64,000 nucleotides of DNA from an uncultured bacterium (lineage in GTDB: Bacteria > BMS3Abin14). The DNA lies in assembly GCA_965603295.1 (NCBI GenBank), contig CBFDCL010000001.1, forward strand, positions 506 to 64,505. The letters run 5' to 3'. This document shows, in pieces, positions 19,220 to 61,958 of the stretch. The first letter of the stretch is position 1. Each line of letters begins with the position of its first letter. A program made the translations under genes and the position numbers. The notes under the pieces were generated by a model. It had not been told where the DNA came from and searched no databases. It was given only the letters and a program-made list of their open reading frames with translations.

Positions 19220-19921
19220 GTGTCCTCTTTCAGCGGTTTTCCGGACGGGGCGGTGAGGTTCCTTTCAGACCTGGCGATGAACAACAAAAAAGCCTGGTTC
19301 GAGGCCCACCGGAACGATTACGACAGGTTCATTGTTGATCCAGCCAAAGCTTTTACCGAAGCCATGGGGGAAAGGCTCACGGCCTATGCCCCCGGCATTG
19401 TCGCCGAACCGAGGGTCAACGGTTCGATCTTCCGCATTTACCGGGACGTGCGCTTCTCAAAGGACAAGCGGCCCTACAAGACCCACCTGGGTATTTTTAT
19501 GTGGGAAGGTGGGGGTCGGAAGATGGAGTGCCCGGGTTTTTACTTCCACCTCGAACCTCCCAACCTCCTGCTCGGTGGCGGGATCCACATTTTCTCGAAA
19601 ACCCTGCTCCATGAATACAGGAGATCCGTGGTCCATCCGAAACACGGCTCGGATTTGTCTGAGGCGGTCGTGTCCGTGTCGAAATGTCTCAACATAGGCG
19701 GCCGACACTACAAGAGAACACCCCGAGGGTACGATTCGGACCATCCTTTGTCGGACTTCCTGCTGTTTAACGGGCTTACGGTCTGGACCGAGGCGCCGAT
19801 ACCAGCCGCGCTGCACGGAGCGGAGATCATTGATCACTGTTTCGATGTGTTCAGGAAAATGCTGCCGATACACACATGGCTCCGCGGAATGGCAGGAAGA
19901 GCTCGCGGAGCCAGAATCTAG
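19220..19921 (+). CDS. DUF2461 (TIGR02453) family protein
   Basis: N-terminal FxxxxxxFLxxLxxNNxKxWF..R..Y signature of DUF2461. Confidence 0.6.
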   Translation: MSSFSGFPDGAVRFLSDLAMNNKKAWFEAHRNDYDRFIVDPAKAFTEAMGERLTAYAPGIVAEPRVNGSIFRIYRDVRFSKDKRPYKTHLGIFMWEGGGRKMECPGFYFHLEPPNLLLGGGIHIFSKTLLHEYRRSVVHPKHGSDLSEAVVSVSKCLNIGGRHYKRTPRGYDSDHPLSDFLLFNGLTVWTEAPIPAALHGAEIIDHCFDVFRKMLPIHTWLRGMAGRARGARI

Positions 19922-20151
19922 AATCTAGACTCCAGATACTAGACTCTGCTGATCTTCCCCCGACACCCCTGTACATCTGGTGCTTAACGCCCGATACGCC
20001 CACACATTGACATGCTGATACGTTTCAAAGGGAATGTACTCTCCCTGTTTTGGTTTACTTCTGTGTTTGGCATTCTGTATTCTGTATTCGTCATAGGAAC
20101 CAGGATTATTTTGAACCTTGGATTTGGATTCTTGAATAAGAGGATATACCC

Positions 20152-24283: not shown

Positions 24284-24334
24284 TCATCGATCACTTCGAG
24301 TCCAAAGTCCAACGCCCAAAGCCCAAAGGGATAG

Positions 24335-24540: not shown

Positions 24541-25425
24541 TTGAACATACTTTTTTATTTCGGCGTCGTCCTTATCTGGGGGACCACCTGGTTCGCCATT
24601 CTGTTCCAGCTCGGCAAGGTGGATCCCCTTGTCTCGATCATCTACCGCTTTTCCCTGGCTGCGTTGATGCTGATGTTCTACTGCATCCTCACCGGGAGGC
24701 GGATGCGGTTTTCCCTGCGGGACCATCTGTTCATGGCTCTGATGGGAACGTTTCTTTTTTCCCTGAATTACTGGTTGTTCTACGTGGCGGAACTCTATCT
24801 CGCCAGCGGCCTGGTGGCGGTGGTTTTTTCCACGATGGTCATCCTCAACATCCTTTTCGGGGTGGTCTTTATCGGTGCGCCCATACGGCCAAAAGTGGTC
24901 CTGGGAGCCCTTATGGGTCTGGCCGGGATCGCCCTGGTCTTCAGGCCGGAGCTGGCGGCCTTTACCCTGTCGGATAAGGGGTTGTTTGGTCTGCTGCTCA
25001 GCCTTGGAGCCACGATATCGGCGTCACTGGGGAATATCATCTCGGCTCGCAACCAGATGGTGCGGATTCCGGTGATCCAGGCCAACGCCTGGGGGATGAG
25101 CTACGGCGTTCTTTTAATGCTGATCACCGCTCTTCTCACCGGGAAGAAGTTCACCTTCGAGGTCACCGTCAGTTACGTCACATCCCTGTTGTACCTGGCT
25201 TTGTTCGGTACCGTCTTCGCTTTCGGAATGTACCTGACGCTCATCGGGCGAATCGGCGCCGACCGGGCCGCCTATGCGACCCTGCTTTTTCCCATCGTGG
25301 CCCTGGCGCTGTCCATGATGTTCGAGGGGTACCGGGGAAATCCGGGGGCTTTTGGAGGATTTGTCCTGATCCTCGCGGGGAACTTCCTGGCCCTTAGCAG
25401 GATGAAAAAACCCGTTGAGAGTTGA
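24541..25425 (+). CDS. DMT-superfamily (EamA) transporter
   Basis: 10-TM EamA-like profile; probable TTG start. Confidence 0.65.
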   Translation: MNILFYFGVVLIWGTTWFAILFQLGKVDPLVSIIYRFSLAALMLMFYCILTGRRMRFSLRDHLFMALMGTFLFSLNYWLFYVAELYLASGLVAVVFSTMVILNILFGVVFIGAPIRPKVVLGALMGLAGIALVFRPELAAFTLSDKGLFGLLLSLGATISASLGNIISARNQMVRIPVIQANAWGMSYGVLLMLITALLTGKKFTFEVTVSYVTSLLYLALFGTVFAFGMYLTLIGRIGADRAAYATLLFPIVALALSMMFEGYRGNPGAFGGFVLILAGNFLALSRMKKPVES

Positions 25426-25509
25426 GCGTTAAAGGTTGAGGGTTTGTGGTTTGCGGTGATGGGAAAAGTTTTCAGTGCCTCGATGCACCAGTGAACTTGT
25501 GCACTGACC

Positions 25510-27327: not shown

Positions 27328-27628
27328 TAAACGGTGTTTGACGACCTGGCGAGGGGGCGACTGGGCGACGGGGAGGGAAGAGAGGGATCTAACCTCCAAT
27401 GCTTGCCAAGCCGTAGCTTTAGCGAAAGCTGGTCCAACGCCTGCCCACCGTAGCCTTGCGCGAAGGTGGGTCCAACGGGAGAGGCAGTTCAGAGTGCAAA
27501 GTTCAGAGTGCAGAGGGAACATTGTTGAGAATTGAGAATTGAGGGTTGGAAATCCAAGAATGCCGTTTGCTGTTTGTAGTTTGAAGTCGCGAATTTGAAA
27601 TTGTATGTCTGGAACCAGGAACTAGGTA

Positions 27629-28300
27629 CTAGGCACCAGATACTGCCTTGATGTTCTCCGGCCCGTTGTTTCCCGGCGCGTTGACCTTCTTCGACACGTC
27701 CCAGGCGTCCATCTGCCCGGCGGGGTAAAGGACGAGGAGGGGAGACAATATCTCCGGGTCCTGAACGGCGTTGTCAAGCCACAGGTCGCGCTTGTCCCTG
27801 CGGATGATGGCAGGCATGCGGTCGTGGATGGGAGCGAGAAGTTCATTGGGCTGGGTGGTCACGATGCTGCAGGTGCGGATACTTTCCCCTTCCGGCGAAG
27901 TCCAGTCGGAGTAGAGCCCCGCGAACCCGAAGGGCCGTCCGTCCTTCATGGTGATGAAGACCGGTACCTTCCCCCCTTCGGTCTTGCGCCACTCGTAGAA
28001 CCCGTCGGCGGCGATGAGGCACCGGTGTTTTTTAAAGGGTCCTTTAAAGCTCGGTTTTTCCGCCAGAGTCTCGGCTCGGGCGTTGATCATGCGGCTGCCG
28101 ATGGACAGGTCTTTCGACCATGGGGGGATGAGGCCCCAACGGGCCAGCATGAGTTGGTTCCCGTCCTCGTTCACCACCACCGGAACGTCCTGCGTGGGGG
28201 CTATGTTCCAGGAGGGGCGGAGGGGGATCTCCGGACTCTGGAGGTTGAATTCCTGTTTTAGGAGGGGGAAAAGTTTAAATTGTACGTATCTGCCACACAT
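27629..28300 (-). CDS. SOS-response-associated peptidase (SRAP/YedK family)
   Basis: Starts MCGRY (catalytic Cys2) with conserved SRAP blocks. Confidence 0.8.
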   Translation of the reverse strand: MCGRYVQFKLFPLLKQEFNLQSPEIPLRPSWNIAPTQDVPVVVNEDGNQLMLARWGLIPPWSKDLSIGSRMINARAETLAEKPSFKGPFKKHRCLIAADGFYEWRKTEGGKVPVFITMKDGRPFGFAGLYSDWTSPEGESIRTCSIVTTQPNELLAPIHDRMPAIIRRDKRDLWLDNAVQDPEILSPLLVLYPAGQMDAWDVSKKVNAPGNNGPENIKAVSGA

Positions 28301-28502: not shown

Positions 28503-28955
28503 CTAGACACTCGGAGGAGCGAGCAGGGCTCGCTCCTCCGCATTCGGCAATATCCCGAACAACTGGCCCTCGATAACCGTTTCGTCCCTCTGGTTGACGA
28601 ATATTGCCGAACACTTGACGCGCCCGCGCTCATCCATCTCGTCGATGGTGAGGGTACAGGTTACCGTGTCGCTGAAGTAGACGGGAAGGCGGAAGCGAAA
28701 GTTCATTCCTGAGGCCAGCATGGCAAGCTGGCCCCCGATCTCGGACATGAGACTGCCCACGTGAAGCCCGTGGCAGATCAGACCATCCAAACCTTTTCCC
28801 TTCGCATATTCCCTGTTGGAGTGCACCGGGTTGTGGTCGTTGGAAACATCGGTAAACAGATGGACGTCCTCTCCGGTGAAGGTTCGTGTGACGGAGAAGG
28901 AGTCCCCGACGGTGATTTCCCCCTCAATGAGTCTGCGGCGGATGGTGGCGGTCAT
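28503..28955 (-). CDS. MaoC-like (R)-hydratase, hot-dog fold
   Basis: Hot-dog motifs (NDHNPVHSN, ICHGLH); start trimmed to MTATIRR because the upstream codons are encoded by a heptamer repeat. Confidence 0.6.
   Translation of the reverse strand: MTATIRRRLIEGEITVGDSFSVTRTFTGEDVHLFTDVSNDHNPVHSNREYAKGKGLDGLICHGLHVGSLMSEIGGQLAMLASGMNFRFRLPVYFSDTVTCTLTIDEMDERGRVKCSAIFVNQRDETVIEGQLFGILPNAEERALLAPPSV
28511..28539 (-). terminator. perfect 13-bp GC-rich stem-loop (cggaggagcgagc-agg-gctcgctcctccg) at the 3' end of the MaoC-like gene
   Basis: Exact inverted repeat; lies within the last ~12 codons of the MaoC ORF as read; no strong U-tract follows. Confidence 0.35.
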
Positions 28956-29071
28956 TAATCTCTCCGGCAAGAAAATTCCAAATTTCAAAATTGATCTCAG
29001 ATCAAAAAGTTCCTTGTGCGCATTTGTACCCGTGCATTAGTGCATTGAATCACGGATCTCAACCCCAAACC

Positions 29072-29914
29072 TCAAACTTCAAACTCATTGTTTTGCCCGA
29101 GCTTCTCCCTCAACTCTTTCCTGAACCTCTTCACGTCCTCGGTCACTCCGGATAAAATCTCGCCCTTTTTATAAAAATCCATGAACTGGATGTTCGCGAG
29201 TTCGGGGTGAACCAGGATGTCCGGCCCCGAGGAGGACATTTTGCCCCTGACGATGGAGGCCTGCATGATCTGGAAGGTTGAGAAAATGTTCTCCAGCATG
29301 GAGGGTACAGGGTGCTCGTCGTCCGGGACTTTTTGCCCCGATACATCGATGGCCGCAAGGATGTCGCATTCGGACCGGATCAAATCGTAAGGGAGGGGGT
29401 TAACCGTGCTGCCGTCAGTAAGGACCCTGCCGCCGAGTTGATAGGGTTCCAGGAGGACGGGAACCGAGATGCTGGCACGGAGGGCCTGGATGAGCGGCCC
29501 AGACCGGAAAACAACCTCCTCGCGCTTCCAGAAGTCGGTGGCGACGATGCGAAGGTCGAGGGAAAGTTCCTCGAAGGAGAGAACCGGAAGGTGTCCCCTC
29601 AGGAAATCCTCCACTTTTTTCCCCTTGAGAACCCCGAGAGTGCTGAAAACGGAAAAGTCCAGCATGCCGGTCATCCGGCGAATCCCCATCCCGTCGAAGA
29701 TTTCCTCGATTTGCCTGCCGGTGAGCCCCCCCGCGTAAAAAGCCCCGATCACCGCCCCGATGGATGTACCGGAAATGATGGAGGGGCGGATGTCCATCTG
29801 GTCGAGAGTTTTCAAAAAGGCAATGTGGCACAGCCCCTTGGCCCCTCCGCCCCCCAGGGCCAGGCCGACACGACGGGTGCTCTTGTTTGCGGATTTCAAT
29901 ATAAGATCCAACAT
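29072..29914 (-). CDS. patatin-like phospholipase
   Basis: GGGAKG oxyanion motif, GTSIGA nucleophile elbow and DGG motif; N-terminus trimmed out of the repeat tract. Confidence 0.75.
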   Translation of the reverse strand: MLDLILKSANKSTRRVGLALGGGGAKGLCHIAFLKTLDQMDIRPSIISGTSIGAVIGAFYAGGLTGRQIEEIFDGMGIRRMTGMLDFSVFSTLGVLKGKKVEDFLRGHLPVLSFEELSLDLRIVATDFWKREEVVFRSGPLIQALRASISVPVLLEPYQLGGRVLTDGSTVNPLPYDLIRSECDILAAIDVSGQKVPDDEHPVPSMLENIFSTFQIMQASIVRGKMSSSGPDILVHPELANIQFMDFYKKGEILSGVTEDVKRFRKELREKLGQNNEFEV

Positions 29915-29954
29915 CCAAGGTCCAAGGTTGAACTTCAAACTTCAAACTTGGAGT

Positions 29955-33449: not shown

Positions 33450-33944
33450 CTAACGGTTTTTCTCCGTGTCTCCGTGTCCCTGTGTCTTCGCGTCTGACGA
33501 TTTACCCCTTAGAGTCTCGATCTCCACGCGGATGACCACGACATTCTCGAGGTCTATCCCGGGAAAATCATATTTTCGGTCCGAATACTGGCCCATGAGG
33601 ATGGCAAGACCCTTTTTCTTGTCCTCGGGTCCGGTGAGGATGCGGGCTTTGCCTGTGCCGATGATGCTGCGGAATTCGGCCGTCCAGGAACAGGCTTTTT
33701 CGCCCCGGGCCAGCCTGTAATGGGAAACAACGGTGAAACAGATCTCGGGGTTTTTCCCCAGGACATCGATCTTCCGGCCTTCAGGAGCGGAGTGGAAGAA
33801 AAGGGCGTCGTCCCAGTAACCAAAGTTTAACGGAACGACGTAGGGCTTCCCGTCGTCCACCATGGAGAGATAACAGATCTCGCCCCGGCGGAGGATGTCG
33901 ATGAGTTCCTCTTGGGACTCAATTATTTTGTCTTTCCGGCGCAT
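33450..33944 (-). CDS. pyridoxamine 5'-phosphate oxidase-like FMN-binding protein
   Basis: PNPOx split-barrel blocks; the last ~12 codons are encoded by a CTCCGTG repeat tract. Confidence 0.6.
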   Translation of the reverse strand: MRRKDKIIESQEELIDILRRGEICYLSMVDDGKPYVVPLNFGYWDDALFFHSAPEGRKIDVLGKNPEICFTVVSHYRLARGEKACSWTAEFRSIIGTGKARILTGPEDKKKGLAILMGQYSDRKYDFPGIDLENVVVIRVEIETLRGKSSDAKTQGHGDTEKNR

Positions 33945-35789: not shown

Positions 35790-35870
35790 GGACAGCTGCT
35801 GCAGCTTTTTTTGAGGGGTTCTCTTTGGGAGAGGAGGCCCCTTTTCTCATGGTCCGTTCGGGAGCATTCT

Positions 35871-37343
35871 ATGGCCATGAACCGGGGTTTTACCGAAGAG
35901 CCTTCCGGAGATCTTCCGGACCACCTGGCACGAGTGAAAAGCTACGTACTCTCGGTTGGGGAATCCGCAGTTGACATTGCGGTCTCCATCCTGGCCCTCG
36001 TTATTGTGGGGCGTTTCTACGGGCCCGAGGGGATGGGCGTCTACACTTTCCTCATGTCCGTCTTTGTGATTGTTGTTTTCCTGTCGGAAGTCGGTATCGA
36101 CAAATGGATCGAAAAGGAACTGGCATCCGAGGGGCAGATTGATACTTCCCGAATGCTTGCCGAGGCAAAGGGCGCGGTTCTCCTCTCTGGACTGGCGGGC
36201 TGTCTGGCGATGTTGATTTTCGGAGCCTGGGCTTCGAAAAGCCCAACAGTGGCCGGGGGTACCTGGCCGGGGTTTGTTCTCCTTGCCCTTGCCGTGCCTC
36301 TGAACCTCAGGTCAGGGCTTCAGGTGTCGGTGCTCCACGGACAGGGAAAGCCCGGTGAGGCGGCTCGAGCGGGGTTCGTCAAACGCTCTGTTTTTCTGGC
36401 AAGCGTATTTACCCTTGCCTATCTTCGCTTCCGGCCCGAGCTGCTCATGGCTGGTTTTGTTCTGTCCGAGGCGGCATCCCTGGCTTCGGCCAGGAGGCGT
36501 GTCAGGATGCCTTCCATAGGCGCGGTTCTCAAGAGGATCCGTGGGGTCGGGGAAACGTTCCGGATGGGCTCACAGTATTATTTTACTCACGAGGCGCTCA
36601 AGGTCCTCTTCTTCGTGGATTTTTTTATCCTTGGGTTGTTCGTGTCTGCCACTCAAGAGGGGTCTTATGCCCAGGCCTCGGTTCTGGCCCGTTTCTTCCT
36701 GCTCATCCCTCTGGGGGCGGCTCCCCTTTATCGGGTCAAAGTGTACAGGGCTTCGGGTTCCGGGCAAGGAGAGATCTTTTCCGATTCCGCCCGGACCGCA
36801 GCCAGGCTTTTCACTCTTCACTCGATGGCGGGGTTGTTGTTCCTGCTCTACTTTCCCCATGTTCTCAGGGTCGTATTCAGGGTCCAAGGAGATACACCTG
36901 TTTTTTTCCAGGTTTTTTCCCTCCTTCTCCCGGGTTTGCTTTTATTTGCTTCCACTCTTGTTCTTGAACCGTTCTTCGGTGCCAGTGGGCGGGAAGAAGA
37001 CCTTAACCGTATCGCCCTGAAGGTTTTCATCCTCAACGCGTTCCTGAACTCCTACCTGATCCCTTACGCGGGGGTCCTCGGCGCCGCAACCGCTACGACC
37101 ATCTCACTCTCCGTGTATTTTGTCCTGTTTTCCAGGGAACTCGGGGAAATCGGTACCATTCCCCTTGGCTCTTACCTCCTGAGCGGGATCCTGGTGTATG
37201 TCAGCTACCATGTTTTATTTCCGGTTCAACCTTATCTTTTCATTGTCTTGCCCCTGGTTTTCGTCGTCCTGCCGGTCTTGTTCTGGGTGTTGGGTTTATT
37301 CGGTCAGGGGCAGGGAAAAAGACAATTGAGAATTGAGAGTTAA
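35871..37343 (+). CDS. polysaccharide biosynthesis protein / Wzx-like flippase (MOP superfamily)
   Basis: About 14 TM helices; the C-terminal 7 codons and stop are supplied by a GAGAATT repeat. Confidence 0.6.
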   Translation: MAMNRGFTEEPSGDLPDHLARVKSYVLSVGESAVDIAVSILALVIVGRFYGPEGMGVYTFLMSVFVIVVFLSEVGIDKWIEKELASEGQIDTSRMLAEAKGAVLLSGLAGCLAMLIFGAWASKSPTVAGGTWPGFVLLALAVPLNLRSGLQVSVLHGQGKPGEAARAGFVKRSVFLASVFTLAYLRFRPELLMAGFVLSEAASLASARRRVRMPSIGAVLKRIRGVGETFRMGSQYYFTHEALKVLFFVDFFILGLFVSATQEGSYAQASVLARFFLLIPLGAAPLYRVKVYRASGSGQGEIFSDSARTAARLFTLHSMAGLLFLLYFPHVLRVVFRVQGDTPVFFQVFSLLLPGLLLFASTLVLEPFFGASGREEDLNRIALKVFILNAFLNSYLIPYAGVLGAATATTISLSVYFVLFSRELGEIGTIPLGSYLLSGILVYVSYHVLFPVQPYLFIVLPLVFVVLPVLFWVLGLFGQGQGKRQLRIES

Positions 37344-37768
37344 GAATTTCAGCCGGTGACTGGTGATTGGTGACTGGGGAACGGTTTGATGTTTGAAGTT
37401 GGATAACCGCGCTGTCATCGCGAGCTGGCATCTGCGCGAAGCGATCCCATAGTGAAGGTTGAAAATCGAGCCTTGGACAGGCTCAGGCCGGGGGAGTTGA
37501 AAATTGAGGATGAACGACAGTGGATCTTTGGGGTCAGAGACCAGCTTTTCGGAAGCCCCAATCCGGATGTCTAAAGGCCAGGGAAAACGGTGATTAGTGA
37601 TTGGTGAATGGAAGATGATGATCAGTTTTACGTTTGAAGTTCAATCTTGGATTCTGAATCTATTCCTTCTTCAACTTTCCACCTTTTTTCTTCCTGTTCT
37701 GTTCACCATTCCCAGTGTTTAACTTCAAACCCGAACATCAACTTCCAAACTCTCAAACTCTCAAACTC

Positions 37769-38806
37769 TCAAACTTTTTTTACGCTTTTCCCCCTGGCAA
37801 GAGCGAAACGGTTGGTCCATTTCTTGGCCGAACCGACGGCCTTATTTTTCGGTTTCAAACCCGTGATGAGCTCCAGGATGTGGCCGGCCTTCGATCCGTT
37901 TTTCAGGAACAGGTTCTTGCATCCCATGCACGAGGTGATGATGGTGGTGCCACTGGAAATCGTTACCGCCTTTTCGGTAAACAGCCGGGCAAGGTCCGGA
38001 TCCTGAGCGGCGAGACTTCCACCGTATCCGCAGCAGGCGGGGGACCCCTGTTCTTCCATCTCACCGTTTACGGCAAGGCCTACGATCCGGCCTGTTTTCC
38101 CGGCCATCGCCTCCACGTGGTAGAAGGGGCACGGATGGTGAAGGTAGAGGTTCTCACCGTCGGGTCGTTCATCCAGGATGTCCTCCGGAAGGAGTTCGAT
38201 CACGTAGCTGGTCTTTACACCGGGCATGAACCCATCGAAAACCTTCTTGCAGTTCGCGCACCCGACGATGAGTCGCTCGACGCCAGCGTGAGAGAGCCTC
38301 TCCCGAATCCGTCCGCATGCGTCTAGCACCGGCCCCGTGTCCCCCATCTGCCACAGGGGATCGAAGCAGCAGTCCATCGCGAGGCCGACATCCTCACCAA
38401 GGACCGTTTCCAGCAACCGGCGTGTGGCCTCGGTGGCTTCAGGGCTCGTTCCGGCCAGGGAACAGCCCGGCCAGAAGGCTGTCGGCAAGGGATCGTAACG
38501 GATAAATGGCGCATTGTGTCCCCTTTCCGCGAAGCTTTTTGCCCCTTTGATTGCCCTGGCGGCGGTATCCGGGAGCTTCCCCGCTTCAATACGGCTTTGC
38601 TTTGTCAGGAACATTGCCGAGGACGGGGAAAGGTCGAGAGGGCACCGATGGTCGCACCCTTTGCAGTTAGTACAGAGGAAGGCAAGGTCAGGCCTGTTGG
38701 AGATAATGTCCTCGGGAGAGCCGTGGGTCTCGAGAAAGGGACAGGCGGGGACGCACCGGGCGCAGGAGGTACAATCGTTCAGGAAATCGGGCACGGAATC
38801 AGACAT
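37769..38806 (-). CDS. (Fe-S)-binding oxidoreductase with two CCG domains (GlcF/HdrD/LutA-like)
   Basis: CxxCxxCxxxCP ferredoxin motifs plus CCG motifs (CCGYGG). Confidence 0.7.
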   Translation of the reverse strand: MSDSVPDFLNDCTSCARCVPACPFLETHGSPEDIISNRPDLAFLCTNCKGCDHRCPLDLSPSSAMFLTKQSRIEAGKLPDTAARAIKGAKSFAERGHNAPFIRYDPLPTAFWPGCSLAGTSPEATEATRRLLETVLGEDVGLAMDCCFDPLWQMGDTGPVLDACGRIRERLSHAGVERLIVGCANCKKVFDGFMPGVKTSYVIELLPEDILDERPDGENLYLHHPCPFYHVEAMAGKTGRIVGLAVNGEMEEQGSPACCGYGGSLAAQDPDLARLFTEKAVTISSGTTIITSCMGCKNLFLKNGSKAGHILELITGLKPKNKAVGSAKKWTNRFALARGKSVKKV

Positions 38807-45469: not shown

Positions 45470-45584
45470 AGAAGCCAGGAGCCAGGAGCCAGTGGCCAGT
45501 GGCCAGTGGGTTCTGAAATGGTGTAATCATAGCCGGAATTTTTGAACTTCTCCTGACTCTTGAATTCTGACTCCTGGCTCCTGC
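45470..45584. repeat. inverted arrays of (GCCAGGA)/(CCAGTGG) versus (CTCCTGG/CTCCTGA) heptamers in the tmk-mogA spacer
   Basis: gccaggagccaggagccagtggccagtggccagtgg at 45470-45510; ctcctgactcttgaattctgactcctggctcctg at 45550-45584; the word recurs at 34921-34940. Confidence 0.6.
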
Positions 45585-46589: not shown

Positions 46590-46690
46590 ACCATAAGAGG
46601 GCAAGGAGAGAGGAAAAGGTAGAAAGTAGAAGGTAGAAAGTAGAAGGTGGAAAGGGGAAGGTGGAAAGGGGGAGGCCGTGAGCTTGTCGA
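46590..46690. repeat. (GAAGGTRGAAAGKA)n purine-rich tandem array
   Basis: aaggtagaaagtagaaggtagaaagtagaaggtggaaaggggaaggtggaaaggggg. Confidence 0.55.
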
Positions 46691-48335: not shown

Positions 48336-50678
48336 ATGTTTTTTCGAACGCGGTACCGGAACCTGTCCCTGGAGGTTTTAAAGGCCTTTCAGGTCTCCGC
48401 GGAACCCAGGGTCCAGCTGTTAAGGACCGCCCGCACCCTTGCGGCGACTCTCGGGGCGGATCTGTGCCAGATTCTCGTCAGGGGTTCTGCGTCCGACGGT
48501 TTTCAGCTAAGGGCATGGGCCGGGCCGGGAGTTCAGGGACCGGTTGAACCCGATTTGCCCCTTGAACAACACCTCCATCGTCTTGCTGTTTCCGGGGTGG
48601 TCCATCGCTGGTCCTCTGGAAAGGGCGGACCCCCTCCATTTCCCAGGGTTCAGGCGGAGGATCTCACGAGCGCCGTTGCGGTGCCCATCCTGTGGCGGCA
48701 CCGGCCGGTGGCCATTGTCGTTGCCGGTTTCGCTGATCGGAGCCGTGTCCCTCCCCGGATGGTTCGGGAGATCCAGGATCTTTCCGCATCCCTTGCTCCC
48801 CTTATCAGGGGCAGCCTTTCCAGACTTTACCAGATGCGCAAAAACGAGGCGGCGGGAGAACTCCTGAGGGTTTCAGAAGACCTCAGCCTTGCGGGGAACG
48901 TTCCCAGTTGTTTCGCCCGGATTGCCAGAGCCGCGGCTACTCTGACGGGATCGTCCGGATCCATGCTTCGGATGGAGGAAAGCTCGATCCTGAAAGTCAA
49001 GGCGTTTTTTGCCAGCGGGATGCCGGGGATAAAGGCTATCGGGGTCCCGAACGACTTTCCTTTCGCTGAGCGGGCCCTTAGAAGCGGTCGTTCCGTTGTT
49101 ATCGATCACCTTCACCGGGAAACCGGGGAAAATGGCGCTCCTGTCAGGCGAAACCTGTTGTGCGTTCCGTTCACCGACGGCAGCAGCCGAGGGGTTTTGA
49201 CCCTTTTCGATCGGGATGACGGCCATGGGGCCTCACCCTATTCCCGCCTCGAAAGGGAAACGGCAAGAGCGCTTCTCCGCGTGGGAATAATGTCCCTTCG
49301 TCACATCGGCAACGAGACCGAAGTGCTCAAGATATCCCGATCCCTCGAATGGCGGGTCAGGGAGCTGACCCTTCTGCACCAGATCAGCCGTGTGGCCCTC
49401 GATCACAGTGACCCAGAGGAGGTCCTGCGGTCCATCCTTGAAGCGGTTACCAACGTCGTGGGGTTCGGTTTCCATCGCGCTTTTCTATTCATGCATAATA
49501 TCGGGAAAAGTGTCCTCAAGGGCGCCATGGGTGTGGAAGCTCTTCCGGTTTCCGGGATCAACGCCCAGACCTCGAGCCCGGCGGATTCCTTTGGCATCAT
49601 TCACCAGAACATCGATGAGGTGGTTTCCGGTCTTGAAATCGCCGTAAAGCCGGGGGGCGGGGTTCTGTCGAGGGCGGTCCTCGAGCGCAAGTCTTTCAGG
49701 ATGAGGATACCGGGGGACCACAATCTGCTGGGTTCCGATGTGATAACGCAGCTGGGCAACGTCCAGGGTTTCGCGGTGGCCCCCCTTCTTTCCGACGAGG
49801 CTGTGCTCGGTGTGATCTGGGTGGATAATTACAGGACTATGCGCCCCATCCGGTTGGACGATTTCCGTCTGCTCGTGACCGCGGCGGCTCAGGCAGCGCT
49901 GGCCATGGAAAGGTCGTCCCGTGCCCAGGCCGTGGATCTTTTGAGCAGTAAACTCCTCGATCTTCAGAACCAGCTTATCCAGTGGGAAAAGATGGCTGCC
50001 CTGGGAGAGATGGCCGCCTCCGTTGCTCACGACATCAGGAACCCCCTGGTTTCCATCGGGGGGTTTGCCCGCAGGCTGAAGAGGCAGCTTTCCGGGGATC
50101 ACAAAGGGAGCAGATACGCCGAAGTTATCATCCAGGAAGTGGATCGGCTCGAGCGGACACTGGAAAACGTCATGTCCTACACGCGCACTTACGGGATGAC
50201 AGAAAGAAAGCCCTCCAGGCTTTACGCCCTGCTGTCGGAGTGCGCTGAACTCTTCAGTGAGAATTTCAGGAAGAAACAGGTTGTGCTAAAGCGGCAGTTC
50301 GAGAGGGATATCCCGGAGATCCTGCTTGATGAACGCCAGATCAAGCAGGCGGTGATCAATATCCTGTTTAATGCCGGGGAGGCCGTACCGGAGGGGAGCG
50401 AAGTGAGGCTGTCAGCACGCGTGGGGAAGACCGAGCAGGGTGATTTTATTGTCATTGATATCTCCGACGAAGGTCAGGGCATCACCGACGGAGATCTCAA
50501 AAAGGTTTTTCAGCCGTTTTTCACCACGAAGGCCAGCGGTACCGGTCTGGGGCTCGCCATTGCCCAACGAGCCGTATCCGGGCACGGCGGCGAAATTCGG
50601 GTGGACAATCGATGTGGTGAAGGGGTAACTTTCAGCATATATCTGCCTTTAGCCCCTTGGACTCCAGCGGAAGAGTAA
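48336..50678 (+). CDS. sensor histidine kinase with tandem GAF domains
   Basis: H-box (VAHDIRNPLVSIGGF); N, G1, G2 boxes. Confidence 0.8.
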   Translation: MFFRTRYRNLSLEVLKAFQVSAEPRVQLLRTARTLAATLGADLCQILVRGSASDGFQLRAWAGPGVQGPVEPDLPLEQHLHRLAVSGVVHRWSSGKGGPPPFPRVQAEDLTSAVAVPILWRHRPVAIVVAGFADRSRVPPRMVREIQDLSASLAPLIRGSLSRLYQMRKNEAAGELLRVSEDLSLAGNVPSCFARIARAAATLTGSSGSMLRMEESSILKVKAFFASGMPGIKAIGVPNDFPFAERALRSGRSVVIDHLHRETGENGAPVRRNLLCVPFTDGSSRGVLTLFDRDDGHGASPYSRLERETARALLRVGIMSLRHIGNETEVLKISRSLEWRVRELTLLHQISRVALDHSDPEEVLRSILEAVTNVVGFGFHRAFLFMHNIGKSVLKGAMGVEALPVSGINAQTSSPADSFGIIHQNIDEVVSGLEIAVKPGGGVLSRAVLERKSFRMRIPGDHNLLGSDVITQLGNVQGFAVAPLLSDEAVLGVIWVDNYRTMRPIRLDDFRLLVTAAAQAALAMERSSRAQAVDLLSSKLLDLQNQLIQWEKMAALGEMAASVAHDIRNPLVSIGGFARRLKRQLSGDHKGSRYAEVIIQEVDRLERTLENVMSYTRTYGMTERKPSRLYALLSECAELFSENFRKKQVVLKRQFERDIPEILLDERQIKQAVINILFNAGEAVPEGSEVRLSARVGKTEQGDFIVIDISDEGQGITDGDLKKVFQPFFTTKASGTGLGLAIAQRAVSGHGGEIRVDNRCGEGVTFSIYLPLAPWTPAEE

Positions 50679-50684
50679 ACGATC

Positions 50685-51062
50685 ATGACCAGCGAGGAGC
50701 ACAGAAAAACGGTCCTCGTCGTGGACGACGAGGAAAGTGTCCGCTTCCTGTACAAGGAAGAACTCGAGGAGGACGGTTACCGTGTCATCACGGCGGCCGA
50801 TGGTGATGAGGCTCTCCACAAGGTTAAGGTGGACCGGCCGGATCTGATCACCCTCGACATACGGATGCCGGGAATGGACGGTATTGAGGTCCTCCACCTG
50901 ATCAGGGAAATGGACAAGGAAATCCCGGTGATCATGTCCACGGCCTACGGGGAGTACAGGAACGATTTCAACATCTGGGCTTCGGACGCTTATGTTGTCA
51001 AGACAGCCAACCTCGATGAGTTGAAAAAGAACATCCGGCGGCTCCTTGGTGATGATGATTGA
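50685..51062 (+). CDS. single-domain response regulator (CheY-like)
   Basis: REC domain with DD...D...T...K residues (VLVVDDE, LITLDIRMP). Confidence 0.8.
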   Translation: MTSEEHRKTVLVVDDEESVRFLYKEELEEDGYRVITAADGDEALHKVKVDRPDLITLDIRMPGMDGIEVLHLIREMDKEIPVIMSTAYGEYRNDFNIWASDAYVVKTANLDELKKNIRRLLGDDD

Positions 51063-52086
51063 CAGGTTCCCGGATTCCCTTCCGGGGTGTTCCCGTTTCC
51101 CCCGAATATTCTGCCTTCTGATCACGGTTATCTTTCTGGTTTCCGGGTGTTCCGGTTCGCGAAAGCCCGTTCGTGAGACCCGCTTCCTGATGGGGACCCT
51201 CGTCGATGTGATCGCCTACGGGGACCAGGAAACGGCCGCCGAGGCGGTGGGCCGGGCCTTCGAAAGGATGGCGGAGGTGGAAGAGGCATCTCATAGTAAG
51301 GGCTTGGGTTCCCTTCTTGGGGCCATCAGGGACGGAAAGGGTGCCCTTCTTACCGGTGATGCCGCTCTCGTCATGGAAACGGCCCTGTCCGTCGCTGTGG
51401 CCAGTTCGGGGGCTTTTGATCCCACTCTGGGGGAACTGGTGGAACTGTGGGGGATCGCCACCGGTCATCCGGAAGTGCCCGATGACGAGAAGATCAAAGA
51501 GGCCCTTTCCCGTTCCGGGTACCAAAGGATCCCGGAGACAGGGTGCTGTCCCGATGGGATGAAGGTGTGGCTGGACCTGGGCGGTGTGGCCAAAGGGTAC
51601 GCGGTGGATGAAGCGGTCAAAGTGCTGAAGGAGGCGGGGGTCCCCTCGGGGATCGTTAACGCGGGCGGGGATCTGAGGTCCTTCGGTCAAAAGCCGGGGA
51701 AAATTCCCTGGAAGATCGGGATCCAGAATCCCGATGACCCTCAGGATCTGGCGGGGGTCCTGGATGTTAACGAGGTCTCCGTCGCGACCTCGGGGGATTA
51801 TCAGCGATACTTTGAGGTGAGCGGTGTCCGGTATCACCATATCCTCGATTCGACCACCGGACATCCCGCACGGTCAGGGGTCCGCAGTGTGACAGTCCTC
51901 ACGGATGACTGCGCTCTTGCCGATGCCCTGGCCACAGCCGCTTTCGTGATGGGTCCCGAAAGGGGCCTGGGTCTGCTGGAGGCCTGGGAAGATGTGGAGG
52001 GGATCATCATTTCCCAGGACGGTACCTATCACCTGACGTTGGGCATAGGAACGAAGATCCCGTTTGAGAAGCGAATTGAGGATTGA
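51052..52086 (+). CDS. apbE: FAD:protein FMN transferase ApbE (lipoprotein)
   Basis: Lipobox (LVSGCSG); ApbE motifs (DLGGVAKGYAVD, GGD); the stop codon lies inside a GAGGATTGAG repeat. Confidence 0.8.
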   Translation: MMIDRFPDSLPGCSRFPRIFCLLITVIFLVSGCSGSRKPVRETRFLMGTLVDVIAYGDQETAAEAVGRAFERMAEVEEASHSKGLGSLLGAIRDGKGALLTGDAALVMETALSVAVASSGAFDPTLGELVELWGIATGHPEVPDDEKIKEALSRSGYQRIPETGCCPDGMKVWLDLGGVAKGYAVDEAVKVLKEAGVPSGIVNAGGDLRSFGQKPGKIPWKIGIQNPDDPQDLAGVLDVNEVSVATSGDYQRYFEVSGVRYHHILDSTTGHPARSGVRSVTVLTDDCALADALATAAFVMGPERGLGLLEAWEDVEGIIISQDGTYHLTLGIGTKIPFEKRIED

Positions 52087-52324
52087 GAATTGAGAGTTGA
52101 GGATTGAGAAAAAAGTTTGAAAGTTTGAGAGTTTGAGGTTTGAAGTTGTGAATTCAGGAGACAGGAGCCAGAATCCAGAAGGCAGCATTTCTTTGGCCTT
52201 TGGGCATTGGGCTTTGGGCTGTTCTTCCAATCACCAATCACTGGTCACAAATCACCGAAATTTTCTTGGATCTTGGATCTGTTTTGAAATTTGGAATTTG
52301 AAATTGCCTTTTGAGATTTGAGAT

Positions 52325-52717
52325 ATGAGGTCTGAAATAGGAACTCGATCCATTCGCCTGACCCGTCCCCGATGGGCGGACGGGGTCCTGCTGGTCCTCC
52401 TGATCGCCCTGACGTTCCTTCCCCCACGGTTGATCCCGGCCGGTCCCAAAGGCGACACCCTCGTGGTCAGGACGTCGGGGTCCGTTTTTGAGGTGGATCT
52501 TACCGATGAAGGGCCCCATCCCATCGATGGCCCGCTGGGAGAGGCTGTCCTCATGGTCCGGGACGGGAAGGCCTGGCTTCAGAACGCTCCCTGTCCGCTC
52601 AAGATCTGCGAGGGGATGGGCCCCATTGACGAGTCCGGCGAGATCATCCTGTGCCTGCCGAACCGGATTCATATTCAGGTAGCAGGGAGCGGTGGTGTTG
52701 ATGCGATCTCCCGGTAG
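52325..52717 (+). CDS. NusG domain II-containing membrane protein
   Basis: N-terminal TM helix plus small beta domain; family call from memory only. Confidence 0.45.
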   Translation: MRSEIGTRSIRLTRPRWADGVLLVLLIALTFLPPRLIPAGPKGDTLVVRTSGSVFEVDLTDEGPHPIDGPLGEAVLMVRDGKAWLQNAPCPLKICEGMGPIDESGEIILCLPNRIHIQVAGSGGVDAISR

Positions 52718-53222
52718 GATCGCCGCCCTGGCGCTGATGGTGGCGGGTGCTTTCGCTCTGGCTTCCCTCGAGAGGGCTCTGCCAAACCCCTTTCCCATGG
52801 TGCGTCTGGGCCTGGGAAACATCATGACCCTCGTGGCTTTCACCACGATGGGGGTCTCGGCCGGGGTGTGGGTGGCCGTCGGCAGAGTAAGTTTGGTGGC
52901 TCTGCTCTGGGGGGGGCTCATCGGGCCGACGGCGGTCCTGTCGGCCTCTGGGGCGGCCGCAAGCCTCCTTGTCATGATCCCACTTCTGCTCGCTGGGCGC
53001 TTCAGCCTCTACGGTGTCAGCCTGGGAGGCGCCTACGCTCATGTCCTCGGGCAGCTGCTTGTCGCTTCCCTGCTCTACGTCAGGTCCCCCGCGCTCCTGG
53101 TCCTCCTCCCGGTCATGGGGGCCGCGGCCATCGTGACAGGAGTCGTCAATGCCTGGGCGGCGGGGAAACTGATTGCCTATCTTCCCGGCAATTTCAGTTC
53201 AGAAAGGCCGTCCAAGGTCTAA
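52692..53222 (+). CDS. Gx transporter family protein (heptaprenyl-diphosphate-synthase component I-like)
   Basis: Small 5-6 TM protein; typical partner of NusG_II proteins. Confidence 0.5.
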   Translation: MVLMRSPGRIAALALMVAGAFALASLERALPNPFPMVRLGLGNIMTLVAFTTMGVSAGVWVAVGRVSLVALLWGGLIGPTAVLSASGAAASLLVMIPLLLAGRFSLYGVSLGGAYAHVLGQLLVASLLYVRSPALLVLLPVMGAAAIVTGVVNAWAAGKLIAYLPGNFSSERPSKV

Positions 53223-53328
53223 CGTTTAACGTCCAACGGAAAAGCGGTGATCGGTAATTAGTGATTGGTGATTGGATGGTAACCCAAGGGAAAATACGTT
53301 AAACGTTTAACGTTGAACGTGGAAAGCT

Positions 53329-53910: not shown

Positions 53911-54123
53911 CGTTCGGAGATTGAGGGCTGCAAGCCACAGGATCAGCTACATCATGGGGCAACCTTGGGGGCAGAGCTTTCCCCCTTGCTCTTTAGAGCT
54001 CCGGAGGACAAGCAAATTCTCAGGTTTTCATTAATTAAAAAATAAAAAAGATTCCCTGTAGTTCCTTTCAGTCACGCTTGAGATCGCTTCGGTCGGGTTA
54101 ACCTCGCGATGACTGCGCTGGGC

Positions 54124-54200
54124 AACTTCAAACCTAAAACATCCAACCAATCACCAATCACGGTTTTTATTCTCAATTCTCAATCCTCAATTCTCAATTT
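54124..54200. repeat. composite heptamer element in reverse-complement orientation (F'-H'-E')
   Basis: caacttcaaacctaaaac / ccaatcaccaatcacgg / ttctcaattctcaatcctcaattctcaa; overlaps the pgeF stop. Confidence 0.7.
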
Positions 54201-54921
54201 TTCTCCCCCTGGCCTTGATGAACGACACCATCCTCTCCCCGTCCCTCCTTGCCCGCCAGGACCAGAACCGGTCTTCGTCACAGGATGTGCATCCAGGGAT
54301 CCTTTCAATGGAACCAGGTGGAATCCCCACGGCAAGTAGCTGGTTTTTCGCCCCTGACGCCAGGTCAAGGTACAGCCCGTTCCCCCGCCGTTGGCAGGGA
54401 CCCTCTGCCCCTGAACCGGGGCAAAGCGTTTTTTGGACATCCTTCCCCACCTCGTAGCAGCACGGGCCGATGGAGGGCCCGAGGGCGGCCACGAGCCCCC
54501 CCGGCTTCGAACCCGTCAGTTTTAGCAGGGCCCTCGTCCCTTTGGCGGCGAGACCAAGGGCCAGGCTGCGCCACCCGCAGTGGATGGCGGCCACTGCGCC
54601 TGTGGACGGATCCCCCACCAGGATGGGAAGACAGTCCGCCGTTCGGATGCCGAGGGGGACTTCCGGAATGTCCGTTACAAGGGCATCCCCTTCGTCGAAA
54701 CGAAACGGCTCCTCCGGGAGGTCTCGCACCACGAGATCAGGGTTTTCTCCGTGCTCAGCGCCCGGCGCCCTGCGCCCTGCGGTCAACACCACAATCCTCT
54801 CCCCGTGGACCTGTTTCAGAATATGAACATTTCCAGGGAGATCGACGGGTGTCGACAGCCTCATTCCGAAACCGTGGTCAAAACCGGCCCGGGTCAGCGT
54901 TGGCGACCGCAGGACCGTCAT
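54187..54921 (-). CDS. pgeF: purine nucleoside phosphorylase / laccase-domain protein PgeF (YfiH)
   Basis: His/Cys triad motifs (HGxxI, TADCLPIL, HCGWRS); the last 5 codons are encoded by a GAGAATT repeat. Confidence 0.75.
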   Translation of the reverse strand: MTVLRSPTLTRAGFDHGFGMRLSTPVDLPGNVHILKQVHGERIVVLTAGRRAPGAEHGENPDLVVRDLPEEPFRFDEGDALVTDIPEVPLGIRTADCLPILVGDPSTGAVAAIHCGWRSLALGLAAKGTRALLKLTGSKPGGLVAALGPSIGPCCYEVGKDVQKTLCPGSGAEGPCQRRGNGLYLDLASGAKNQLLAVGIPPGSIERIPGCTSCDEDRFWSWRARRDGERMVSFIKARGRKIEN

Positions 54922-55871: not shown

Positions 55872-55879
55872 GGGGAGGG

Positions 55880-56150
55880 TTACCAGATGTCGGAATCGAT
55901 GTCCCCGAAGCGTTTGACCAGGACGTCCACGATGGCCCTGTTATAGGGAACCCATCTCCCGGGCATTTCGGGGTCGACCCGTGACTCGTAAAGCTTCCGC
56001 CCTTCCTCCAACTGGTCGGCTATATCCGTGAACAGGGAATCGTTTTTTATGCTCTTCCGTATTTTTTCCTGGTTGTAAAGGGCGATGTCGGACATGATGG
56101 TTCGCGCAAGCCTATCGGCGTCCTTGACGTTGTTGATGAGCGTCATCCGG
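55880..56150 (-). CDS. small hypothetical protein (~89 aa)
   Basis: Start at MTLINNV; the remainder of the ORF-track frame is Arg/Gly-rich and looks non-coding. Confidence 0.35.
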
Positions 56151-56565: not shown

Positions 56566-56732
56566 CTTCCCACCCTAAGTGACCCGTACGGGAAAATCAA
56601 GGGGGCTTGTCATTTTCACCGTGGCTTGAAGTGGCGGGAATCCCGCCACTTCAAGCCCTCAAACTTCAAACAGAGTTCTCCACGTTTAACGTTGAACGTT
56701 GAACGTGATTCCAACTTCAAACTCTCAAACTC

Positions 56733-57650
56733 TCAAACTTGGAATTTCTCCCCCGTGAGCAGTTCGAACGCCTCCACGTATTTCCCCCTCGTTTTACCCA
56801 CAATATCGTCCGGGAGAGTGGGGGCTGGCGGCGTTTTGTTCCAGTTCAGATCCTCCAGGTAGTCCCGGACAAACTGTTTGTCGAAGCTTTCGGGGCTTGT
56901 TCCCACCTTGTACGTGGAAGCCGGCCAGAACCGGGAGGAGTCGGGTGTCAGCACTTCGTCGATCAGGAGCAATCCCCCGTCGATGGCCCCGAATTCGAAC
57001 TTGGTGTCGGAGATGATGATGCCTCGCTGCCTGGCGAAAGCAGCGGCTTTTTCATAGACGGCGATAGTGATCTCCTTAAGCTTTATGAGGGTTTGGGCCC
57101 CAACTGTTTCCGCGGCTTGGGCGAAGGAGATGTTCTCATCATGTCCCGTGTGGGCTTTTCTGGCAGGGGTGAAGATGGTTTCTTCCAGTTTCTGTGCCTG
57201 TTGCAGGCCGTCGGGGAGGGGGATGCCGCACACTTCCCCCGATTCCCGGTAATCGTTCCATCCGGTTCCCGCCAGGTACCCCCTTGCCACACATTCCACC
57301 GGGAAGGGATCCGTCTTCCGGACCAGCATGCTTCTACCCTCCAGCAGCGGGGCGTGTTTCTGAAGGGAAGGAGGGTAATCCTCCACCTTGGCGGAAACAA
57401 GATGGTTTTTCACGATGTCCTCGGTGAAACGGAACCAGAAAAGTGACATCTGTGTCAGGATCTTCCCTTTGTCAGGAATCCCGTTGGGCATAATCACGTC
57501 GAAGGCGGAGATCCGGTCCGTGGCTACGATCAGGAGGTGCTCGCCCAGGTCGTAAACATCGCGAACCTTGCCCCGTCGAAAAAGGAGAACCCCCGGAAGA
57601 TCGGTTTTCACTACCGTTTTTCTGTTCTCAGTACTGTTTTCCCGTTTCAT
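56733..57650 (-). CDS. purC: phosphoribosylaminoimidazole-succinocarboxamide synthase
   Basis: Long-form PurC (RGKVRDVYD, ATDRISAFD); start MKRENST at 57650 with AGGAGAG RBS. Confidence 0.85.
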   Translation of the reverse strand: MKRENSTENRKTVVKTDLPGVLLFRRGKVRDVYDLGEHLLIVATDRISAFDVIMPNGIPDKGKILTQMSLFWFRFTEDIVKNHLVSAKVEDYPPSLQKHAPLLEGRSMLVRKTDPFPVECVARGYLAGTGWNDYRESGEVCGIPLPDGLQQAQKLEETIFTPARKAHTGHDENISFAQAAETVGAQTLIKLKEITIAVYEKAAAFARQRGIIISDTKFEFGAIDGGLLLIDEVLTPDSSRFWPASTYKVGTSPESFDKQFVRDYLEDLNWNKTPPAPTLPDDIVGKTRGKYVEAFELLTGEKFQV

Positions 57651-59442: not shown

Positions 59443-59498
59443 TTTCCAGGACTTGACCTTGGGGTTCCGAACGGTTCCTGAATCCGGAAACCGGAAAT

Positions 59499-60080: not shown

Positions 60081-60146
60081 GGTTTTTCCTTTGTTCGGGG
60101 CCGGGTTGATATATTGTTAAAACATTATGATGATAAGGAGGAACCT

Positions 60147-61757: not shown

Positions 61758-61958
61758 TCTCCGGAGTGCAGGATATAGAGTGCAGTGTGCAGAGGGTAAG
61801 AACAATTGAGAATTGAGGATTGAGAATCACGGTTTGAAGTTTGAGGTTTTGAGTTTGAAGTTGCCGATTTGCTTTGTCTCTGCACTTTACACCCTGCACT
61901 CTGCACTCAATTCTCTGGACTCTGAACCCTGAACTCTGAACTCTGAACCGGCCTTTTT

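Follow-up and report, generated by a model that had tools for sequence, protein, structure and literature searches.

Composite heptamer-repeat elements probably overwrite stop codons and remodel protein ends in an uncultured bacterium

We analyzed a 64,000-nucleotide stretch of DNA from an uncultured bacterium (lineage BMS3Abin14; GenBank contig CBFDCL010000001.1, positions 506 to 64,505), hereafter called the window, in which the stop codon of apbE, the gene for an FAD:protein FMN transferase, lies inside a heptamer tandem repeat. Our comparison indicates that this arrangement is probably one case of a broader process, in which composite heptamer/octamer elements overwrite the stops of genes, the three-frame stops of the repeat make the overlap tolerable, and deeper encroachment into the genes is purged. 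All coordinates below are positions within the window.

The apbE open reading frame (ORF; 51046..52086, plus strand) matches Pfam ApbE with E=1.8e-76 and encodes 346 residues; the database protein P0001 starts at 51052 and has 344. Its 3' end reads TTT GAG AAG CGA ATT GAG GAT TGA, and the protein ends in ...FEKRIED*. The CGA codon is followed by the units ATTGAGG ATTGAGA ATTGAGA GTTGAGG ATTGAGA, an (ATTGAGR)5 array that we call the A block (52075..52110, plus strand; 52073-52110, period 7 and 5.4 copies according to Tandem Repeats Finder, TRF). The repeat thus supplies the closing codons ATT GAG GAT as well as the stop itself, and the TGA (52084..52086, plus strand) sits in the second heptamer unit, as an earlier interpretation made from the letters alone (the sequence-only reading) had maintained. 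Among 82 ApbE orthologues of 51-87% identity, 62 (76%) end without a tail at a conserved ...F-x-x-R/K, mostly FEKR or FEER, to which the window protein adds IED. The closest relative, L095 (87% identity, a 190-residue fragment), has TTC GAA AAA CGG TAG at this place, without an ATTGAGR block.

The frames of ATTGAGR meet a stop after 0, 3 or 5 codons, and when one or two units are added or removed in simulation at the apbE end, the protein keeps its 346 residues in every case and ends in IED, IEN or IES. The tract is therefore a slippage-proof stop. As regards ApbE itself it does not behave as a phase-variable contingency locus, because simulated slippage by 1-2 units changes only the last residue of ApbE. 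Among relatives, the A block meets apbE at another junction in L097 (...FEKKNKVEN*), lies 100 nt downstream behind a GGACGAC array in L082, and is absent from the apbE end in L081 and L095. In two more distant relatives the gene ends as ...FERAGKGIRDQG in a GGGATAA tract (L001) and as ...FEER, with the TGA within CGGTGAT CGGTAAT CGGTAAT (L002). Blocks are thus gained, lost or displaced at this gene end. The structure of the apbE end is identical in ten independent assemblies, whose contigs are 99.5-99.96% identical to the window and were picked by their exact ApbE protein sequence, which biases the set against tail variants; given this agreement, the structure is not an assembly artefact.

Such tracts pervade the non-coding DNA of the window. 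They were called with a strict period scan and, more loosely, with TRF (110 rows, mostly of period 7, 8 or 14). The period scan finds 64 period-7 tracts, about one per kb, against 0.4 in shuffles (~160-fold); there are 10 tracts of period 8, and for periods 3-6 and 9-12 the counts stay close to background. Of heptamer tandems with two exact copies there are 63 (3.2 in shuffles), built from 40 distinct units. Tracts cover 21.5% of non-coding but only 0.68% of coding DNA. Seven of the 40 stops that border a spacer of 30 nt or more lie wholly within a strict tract (those of apbE, pgeF, patatin, purC, CCG/Fer4, DUF2461 and SRAP), as against none of the 24 operon-internal stops, and a tract comes within 25 nt of the stop in 21 of the former and none of the latter; the tract density of coding DNA would lead one to expect about 0.4 of the 64 stops in tracts by chance. 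The looser TRF calls add the stops of a flippase gene, of EamA and of an Hpre_diP_synt_I-family gene (heptaprenyl diphosphate synthase component I).

At two gene ends a full copy of a composite element overlaps the stop. In pgeF (Cu-oxidase_4 family; 54187..54921, minus strand), the Pfam domain extends to residue 235 of 244, and the 3' end AGA AAA ATT GAG AAT TGA falls within a tract at 54169-54199, in agreement with the previous assignment of the last codons (RKIEN*) to GAGAATT repeats. A full composite element (54120..54207, minus strand; nhmmer E=2e-19 and alignment) spans the stop and consists of the leader GGGGGAGAAAA, the A block at 54169-54199, a GTGATTG block at 54146-54161 and a terminal GTTTGAAGTTG. 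The PgeF tail past about ...FIKAR (GRKIEN*) is element-derived, the leader being translated as GRK and followed by IEN*. This element belongs to repeat family I8 and is 90% complementary over 42 nt to 24327-24368. The polysaccharide flippase ORF (35811..37343, plus strand; a weak Pfam Polysacc_synt match; the database protein starts at 35871 and has 490 residues) ends as AGA CAA TTG AGA ATT GAG AGT TAA. This end had also been read as repeat-encoded, correctly so, with the TAA in a degenerate third unit, AGTTAAG, just beyond the strict tract call. The element here (37309..37404, plus strand; nhmmer E=4e-24, TRF and alignment) has its A block at 37324-37348, a GGTGAYT block at 37355-37377 and GTTTGAAGTTG at 37391-37401, and the tail ...QGKRQLRIES* combines the leader (QGKRQ) with the A block (LRIES*). 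Flippase orthologues agree through ...LFWVLGLYGQ; beyond this point each lineage has its own tail, 6-35 residues long and readable as a translated repeat; QNVECRMQNAE, for instance, is by our own translation in-frame (GCAGAAT)n.

The PNPOx-family gene (33450..33944, minus strand) extends this pattern to octamers. Its Pfam Pyridox_ox_2 domain extends to residue 148 of 164, and a 13-residue tail, DAKTQGHGDTEKNR, follows the sequence GKSS. The tail is mostly encoded by a tract at 33461..33495 (minus strand; TCTCCGTG on the plus strand, GACACGGA in sense; TRF period 8, 4.4 copies, 77% matches), and the stop lies 9 nt past the octamer array. The sequence-only reading had taken the tail for CTCCGTG repeats: it is repeat-derived, with an octamer instead of a heptamer as its unit, and the last three codons and the stop (KNR*) fall outside the tract. 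Among 120 orthologues, 72 (60%) are 150-151 residues long and end at GKSS without a tail. A motif SD.xTRRxGD.E, which corresponds to the in-frame reading of the octamer, is present in the window protein and in about 19 of 52 orthologue C-termini inspected. Such sharing is what one would expect if the tails were ancestral coding sequence that happens to be repetitive, a view that can be considered together with the possibility that the tracts are artefacts of assembly or annotation. Both are highly improbable. The motif is itself an octamer translation, and in the orthologue L218 (59% identity) the octamer starts from the same codon and runs past the stop, with a tail DTETRRYGDTEN* in which DTETRRYGDTE is encoded by (GACACGGA)n in the DNA. 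The tail is missing from the majority of both PNPOx and ApbE orthologues, the ten independent assemblies agree, and tracts are about 160-fold more numerous than in shuffles. The orthologues of ApbE, PNPOx and the flippase, together with the comparison with L081 and L082, refute this explanation. As the PNPOx tail is common to a subset of orthologues, it is repeat-derived but old or recurrent, not recent.

L081 (78% ApbE identity) and L082 (68%) share the gene order of the window from 41000 to 63900. In PgeF, PurC and the Hpre_diP_synt_I-family protein, homology with these relatives stops exactly at each genome's own tract. PgeF ends as ...FIKARGRKIEN* in the window, ...FITAREPSSIGV in L081 and ...WIRAVKGKE in L082, each within a tract of its own, and PurC ends as ...KFQV* in the window, ...SQVEG* within GGTTGAG in L081 and ...QFEGG* in L082. 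Between the window and both relatives, gene ends are conserved where genes abut genes and lost where they face spacers. The suggestion that repeats had remodelled C-termini thus holds for ApbE, PgeF, PurC, the Hpre_diP_synt_I-family protein, the flippase and PNPOx, and the alignment of orthologues, run to see whether the tails are ancestral, found that most ApbE and PNPOx proteins end before the tail. These alignments show the repeat-encoded C-terminal tails to be derived.

Many of the tracts are not isolated arrays. Four loci, 24330-24436(+), 54207-54120(-), 23393-23485(+) and 37309-37404(+), align over about 90-110 nt in a common order: the leader GGGRAAAGAACA, (ATTGAGR)n, AAAAMC, (RGTGATTG)n, GRAAC and (GGTTTGAR)n, ending in GTTTGAAGTTG. 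An nhmmer profile built from these full copies recovers them at E 1e-19 to 1e-24, adds four to five near-full copies, the one at the apbE end included, and several half copies, and also detects A blocks in L082, L097 and L081. The order of blocks A, B and C, often followed by ACGTTMA, recurs in the window; GTTTGAAGTTG occurs 24 times against 1.1 expected; and a repeat search groups multi-block sequences into families of 90-97% identity, such as I8, I10 and I3. The copy at the apbE end (52072..52147, plus strand; profile positions 8-93 of 97, E=9e-5; families D5, D7 and D12) lacks the GTGATTG block and is laid out as A block, linker and (GTTTGAR)n ending in GTTTGAAGTTG. Its C block, AAGTTTGA/GTTTGAG with periods 8 and 7, lies at 52112..52152 (plus strand; TRF 52113-52152 and 52123-52147). 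The remainder of the spacer up to the NusG_II gene (52155..52329, plus strand) consists of chained short tracts of CAGGAGA, CTTTGGG, CCAATCA, TCTTGGA, TTTGAAA and TTTGAGA, and the spacer as a whole is 238 nt long and 70% tract.

An origin of each tract in place, by slippage of the gene-end sequence including its native stop and with no dispersal of elements, is a rival that we find rather unlikely, although parts of the data fit it well. In L002, CGGTGAT CGGTAAT CGGTAAT begins with the conserved last codon (the R of FEER) and the native TGA of the gene, which is birth in place and not insertion; the window and L081 share the codons CAA GTT of purC, within which the tracts of both start; tracts in the population differ by whole-unit indels; the 63 exact tandems are spread over 40 units; and heptanucleotides are the commonest long simple-sequence repeats of repeat-rich prokaryotes, ascribed to polymerase slippage (Mrazek 2007, as relayed in PMC4679880). 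As the sole explanation, however, local birth is contradicted by three observations. Unlinked loci share multi-block sequences, linkers and the non-repetitive leader included, at 90-97% identity, which is not what independent local slippage produces; GAGAATT is found as an exact tandem at 9 loci; and where relatives retain a native apbE end, as in AAACGGTAG, AAAAGGTAA and AAGAGATGA, it bears no resemblance to ATTGAG, so that the A block of the window was not locally seeded.

Overwriting by dispersed elements is further favored by the position and orientation of the blocks. Nine of 11 A-like blocks lie in sense orientation within -40..+60 nt of a stop, where a null of random placement in spacers has a mean of 2.0 and a maximum of 7 and none of 5000 simulations reaches nine; the other two are away from any sense-strand stop, one in a divergent spacer and one just upstream of a gene start. 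Of the tracts nearest a gene 3' end, 24 have their stop-rich strand in sense and 5 in antisense orientation (p=5e-4). This bias holds for genes on both strands and thus follows transcription, not replication.

From these data we propose the following. The intergenic spacers are built largely of 7-nt and some 8-nt tandem tracts, many of them blocks of dispersed composite elements, the best-defined of which lies in sense orientation directly downstream of genes, and their copy number shifts by whole units, a step that is shown among close strains. Since 7 is not a multiple of 3, a unit with a sense TGA, TAA or TAG stops every frame within three units (21 nt). Where insertion, expansion or a small deletion brought a tract over a native stop, translation would end at most 6 codons later, and the gene would survive at the price of a few new terminal residues, like the IED of ApbE. 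Deeper encroachment would presumably be purged by purifying selection, which would leave tracts flush with functional coding sequence. Stop-free units, such as GCAGAAT and the octamer GACACGGA, instead lead to longer tails of 10-35 residues, as shown in flippase and PNPOx orthologues, and a TTG, GTG or ATG just after the unit stops creates false upstream starts in mechanical ORF tracks.

Variation within the population agrees in part. Three spacer tracts differ in length among the ten contigs, by 7, 7 and 14 nt and so in each case by whole units: L085 lacks 7 nt (indel at 45488) in the AGCCAGG/GCCAGTG tract at 45473..45509; L085, L090 and L091 lack 7 nt (at 46633) in the GTAGAAR tract at 46619..46645; and L085 has two extra units, 14 nt (at 61805), in the A block at 61804..61827 (plus strand), 47 nt downstream of the SBP_bac_5 gene. 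The only other population indel is a loss of 4 nt at 48962 in the GAF-HisKA kinase gene of L089, which splits it into 217 and 568 residues and may be either a strain frameshift or an assembly error. The predicted variation in repeat number was seen in spacer tracts and not in tracts that overlap genes, and protein length is constant, fragments aside, within the clusters of PgeF, the Hpre_diP_synt_I-family protein, the flippase and PNPOx.

Several observations weigh against the overwriting of stops as proposed here. Tracts that overlap genes are invariant in the ten population contigs, and at none of the stops in these assemblies was an insertion, a deletion or an expansion observed directly. 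The orientation bias continues 26-80 nt beyond the stop (14 versus 1), where selection on the protein tail cannot explain it, and function, insertion polarity or transcription-linked mutation must also orient the tracts. Stops are covered by tracts no more often (17.5%) than spacer DNA (21.5%). Some tracts are conserved at orthologous positions, namely an ACGTTCA block that follows purC both in the window and in L081, an AGTGCAG/AGTCCAG block after the SBP_bac_5 gene in the window, L081 and L082, and the octamer at the PNPOx end among orthologues; constraint fits this conservation as well as inheritance does. To this comes the scope of the material, a self-trained, hand-curated map of 64 genes and a sequence base of the 64-kb window plus ~35 kb from relatives. 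The sequence-only reading had explained the abutting of elements and gene ends by insertion at or over stop codons. For the A-block element, with nine of its 11 copies at 3' ends and its presence, absence or displacement among relatives, insertion over stops is plausible, and we retain it for this block only. As a general rule, stop-targeted insertion is rejected in view of the near-equal coverage of stops and spacers, and the L002 tract, built from the last codon and stop of the gene itself, also speaks against it.

The orientation and order of the blocks raise the further possibility that the composite elements are functional gene-end modules, with stop overlap as a by-product, and that they act as a putative platform, multivalent and weakly structured and located in the mRNA 3'-untranslated region or in intergenic RNA, for an RNA-binding protein or as a non-hairpin signal for termination or processing. 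We consider this unlikely. Besides the 3'-end association and sense orientation of the A blocks, it would account for an orientation bias that reaches well past the stop and tracks the gene strand and not the replication strand, for the recurrent order of A, B, C and often ACGTTMA, and for unit families common to relatives at 68-78% protein identity, with some blocks conserved in position. Moreover, the RNA of the apbE spacer folds worse than 199 of 200 shuffles (z=+2.0), and tract-rich flanks are C-poor (7-17% C). Precedents for repeat-reading proteins include ring-shaped regulators that recognize triplets repeated every few bases and CsrA-type proteins that recognize GGA. For the TAACTGA repeats discussed below, binding of S1, Csp or CsrA has been suggested (MacGregor 2015; PMC4679880). 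Against such a function stand the wide variation of units at a given gene end among relatives, the polymorphic copy number, the two A blocks away from any sense-strand stop, and the absence of any match at gathering threshold when the whole window was scanned with Rfam 15. Neither is weak folding a general property: 34 gene 3' flanks, taken together, fold no worse than their shuffles (mean z -0.84), structure does not vary significantly with tract content (Spearman -0.27, p=0.12), and we dropped the notion of a general unstructured platform on the grounds that these flanks show no such trend. A more specific version, in which the ordered elements (leader, ATTGAGR, GTGATTG, GTTTGAR and often ACGTTMA) form a clade-wide, orientation-specific gene-end system, a putative repeat-built platform, 3'-untranslated or intergenic, which a protein with 7-nt periodic recognition would read or a dedicated process would make and which would mark or regulate transcript ends and tolerate stop replacement as a side effect, seems to us slightly more doubtful still.

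No terminator-like site, defined as a G+C-rich hairpin with a T run, was found in 52087-52324 or in the tract blocks, and a terminator/promoter consensus scan of 50000-62000 gave neither hits in the tract blocks nor any enrichment (11 terminator-like sites versus 15 expected). Strong hairpins, such as that after purC, lie past the tract blocks. The purC hairpin is a near-perfect GGCTTGAAGTGGCGGGA-TT-CCCGCCACTTCAAGCC at about 56610-56650 on the minus strand (3' flank z=-6.2) and is probably the real terminator.

Comparison with known systems places the overwriting of stops by heptamer repeats among described phenomena. Miniature inverted-repeat transposable elements (MITEs; for example Correia and RPE) and the repetitive extragenic palindromes and their mosaics (REP/BIME) are short, non-autonomous copies dispersed in spacers, and BIMEs are mosaics of ordered sub-motifs. 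The elements of the window resemble them in overlapping gene ends, altering termini and misleading annotation. Unlike them, they lack terminal inverted repeats and palindromic units, and their body consists of direct heptamer arrays: the element ends GGGRAAAGAACA and GTTTGAAGTTG are not complementary, no flanking target-site duplication is visible at the junctions examined, and no transposase was identified. Cyanobacterial short tandemly repeated repetitive (STRR) sequences have the heptamer units CCCCAGT, TTGGTCA and CAACAGT, and no tandems of these three units are present in the window.

The closest counterpart is the TAACTGA heptamer, described as direct repeats in marine Beggiatoaceae, some Cyanobacteria and Bacteroidetes (MacGregor 2015; PMC4679880). 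It forms intergenic tandems of 2-6 copies. Forward repeats present a stop in every frame and extend over upstream stop codons, reverse ones are translated at the ends of proteins, and many sit directly beside a start codon. In Beggiatoaceae this unit dominates and related heptamers are rare (PMC4679880). The window shares the intergenic heptamer tandems and the forward three-frame stops over upstream stop codons, and overlap of stop codons by heptamer repeats is thus a known phenomenon. TAACTGA itself is present in the window as three single copies and no tandem. The window differs in having at least 40 units within 64 kb and about one tract per kb, in blocks that are chained in recurrent order and form dispersed 90-110 nt elements with a non-repetitive leader, and in the association of its best-defined block with gene 3' ends and not start codons.

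Long simple sequence repeats (SSRs) of 5-11 nt, heptanucleotides especially, are known from prokaryotes (Mrazek et al. 2007, via PMC4679880). Insofar as that survey is conveyed by the secondary source, the window tracts match it in heptamer period, non-triplet intergenic bias, slippage-type change by whole units and patchy phylogeny. They show an excess of head-to-tail units, whole-unit change among close strains and exclusion from coding sequence, as long SSRs do. Unlike such surveys, which as relayed treat tracts as independent microsatellites, we find ordered, dispersed and gene-oriented blocks. Borg extrachromosomal elements of archaea are described as carrying pervasive, fast-evolving tandem repeats that appear independently in related genomes and add protein residues (PMC9879509). 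In the window the units are 7-8 nt long and only the extreme termini are remodelled. As far as a limited literature search shows, the size of the unit repertoire, the ordered dispersed elements with a leader, the 3'-end and orientation bias, and the host lineage set the window apart; the repeats of this lineage may already have been described.

These arrangements have practical and conceptual consequences. Automated annotation in the lineage is liable to misplaced starts, to C-termini that are too long or too short and to small false ORFs on tract arrays, and the public database proteins of the lineage already carry repeat-encoded tails of 3-35 residues. The tracts also offer a clean natural example of how a non-triplet period gives a slippage-proof three-frame stop, and indicate that non-coding repeats can replace native stops at little cost and that protein termini turn over fast. 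Should the composite elements prove functional, they would amount to a signal for gene ends that is built from repeats and, as far as a limited literature search extends, has no described bacterial counterpart.

Start codons are affected as well. The patatin ORF (29072..29938, minus strand) begins with eight codons that are tract. Its Pfam Patatin match begins at residue 26, many homologues align by their residue 2 to query residues 22-23, and the likely start is the ATG at 29914-29912 (or the TTG at 29899). The stop of this gene (29072-29074) lies within an (AGTTTGA)-type tract at 29061-29085. The MaoC ORF (28503..28988, minus strand) starts at a TTG in TTTGAAATTTGGAATTTTC; its first 11 codons are probably non-coding, residues 6-15 of PDB homologues align from query residue 21-25, and the likely start is the ATG at 28955-28953, preceded by GGAGAG. 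For both genes the sequence-only reading had called the N-terminal extension repeat. A tract is indeed present in patatin, made of AAGTTTG x3 and ACCTTGG x3 and not of CTCAAAC, and in MaoC there is a TTTGRAA stretch, a weak one of 2.5 units without a TRF row. Both extensions are artefacts that arise when the first TTG past a stop is taken as the start, and the warning that tracts confound start and stop calling is borne out by these TTG 'starts' upstream of the homologue starts. ORFs of 39-40 residues without Pfam matches are called on tract arrays in L082 (11026-11148) and L085 (20776-20895), and are likely false genes in public protein sets. Tracts also adjoin genuine start codons, an observation shared with TAACTGA in MacGregor's study. 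In the window the NusG_II ATG (52325) lies within the TTTGAGA tract (52310-52329), a start that matches the population gene calls as well as L081 and L082; in L082 (about 11450-11493) it directly follows (TCTGGAA)n. No canonical ribosome-binding site lies between tract and NusG_II ATG in either the window or L082.

The remaining stops within tracts had not been listed in the sequence-only reading. The octamer GAGTTTGA holds the purC stop (56733-56735) in a tract at 56713..56739 (minus strand; TRF period 8) and the stop of the CCG/Fer4 gene (37769..38806; stop 37769-37771) in a tract at 37746..37775 (minus strand; TRF with 100% matches and strict call). The period scan places the DUF2461 TAG (19919-19921) in an AGAATCT tract at 19913..19929 (plus strand) and the SRAP TAG (27629-27631) in a tract at 27611..27633 (minus strand). 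Two further stops depend on TRF calls, the EamA TGA (25423-25425) in a GTTGAGG-type tract at 25414..25444 (plus strand) and the TAA of the Hpre_diP_synt_I-family gene (53220-53222) in a CGTCCAA/CGTTTAA tract at 53209..53238 (plus strand), whose orthologues have different tails.

Beyond the window, arrays of three or more ATTGAGR units are found in at least 120 metagenome contigs, a heterogeneous set with a GC content of 33-68%, and the unit is therefore not confined to the source lineage. A frame of at least 100 codons enters these arrays in 45% and from the other side in 32%, compared with 55% at random positions, which makes the control uninformative, and we draw no support from this comparison. 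Some contigs, such as L115, L117, L118 and L164, carry several dispersed (ATTGAGR)3+ copies each. A plasmid collection queried with window positions 50000-54000 gave no matches.

Additional features concern the composite elements and their surroundings. A sequence GCGC[AT]GTCATCGCGAG follows GTTTGAAGTTG at 37402-37425(+) and at about 54095-54118(-), a similar GTCATCGCGA is found in the apbE spacer of L095, and the sequence may be part of a longer variant of the composite element. The divergent spacer at 23300-23689 has A, B and C blocks in its left arm, reversed C and B blocks with a GTTAAAC-type block in its right arm and a unique core, and overall forms a long imperfect inverted repeat of heptamer blocks. 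Two pairs of dispersed spacer repeats that are not tracts, both on the same strand and assigned to family D13 or D17, are located at 16731-16817/28307-28393 (87 nt, 85% identity) and 16565-16608/33400-33443 (44 nt, 91% identity), and point to further families of intergenic elements in this genome.

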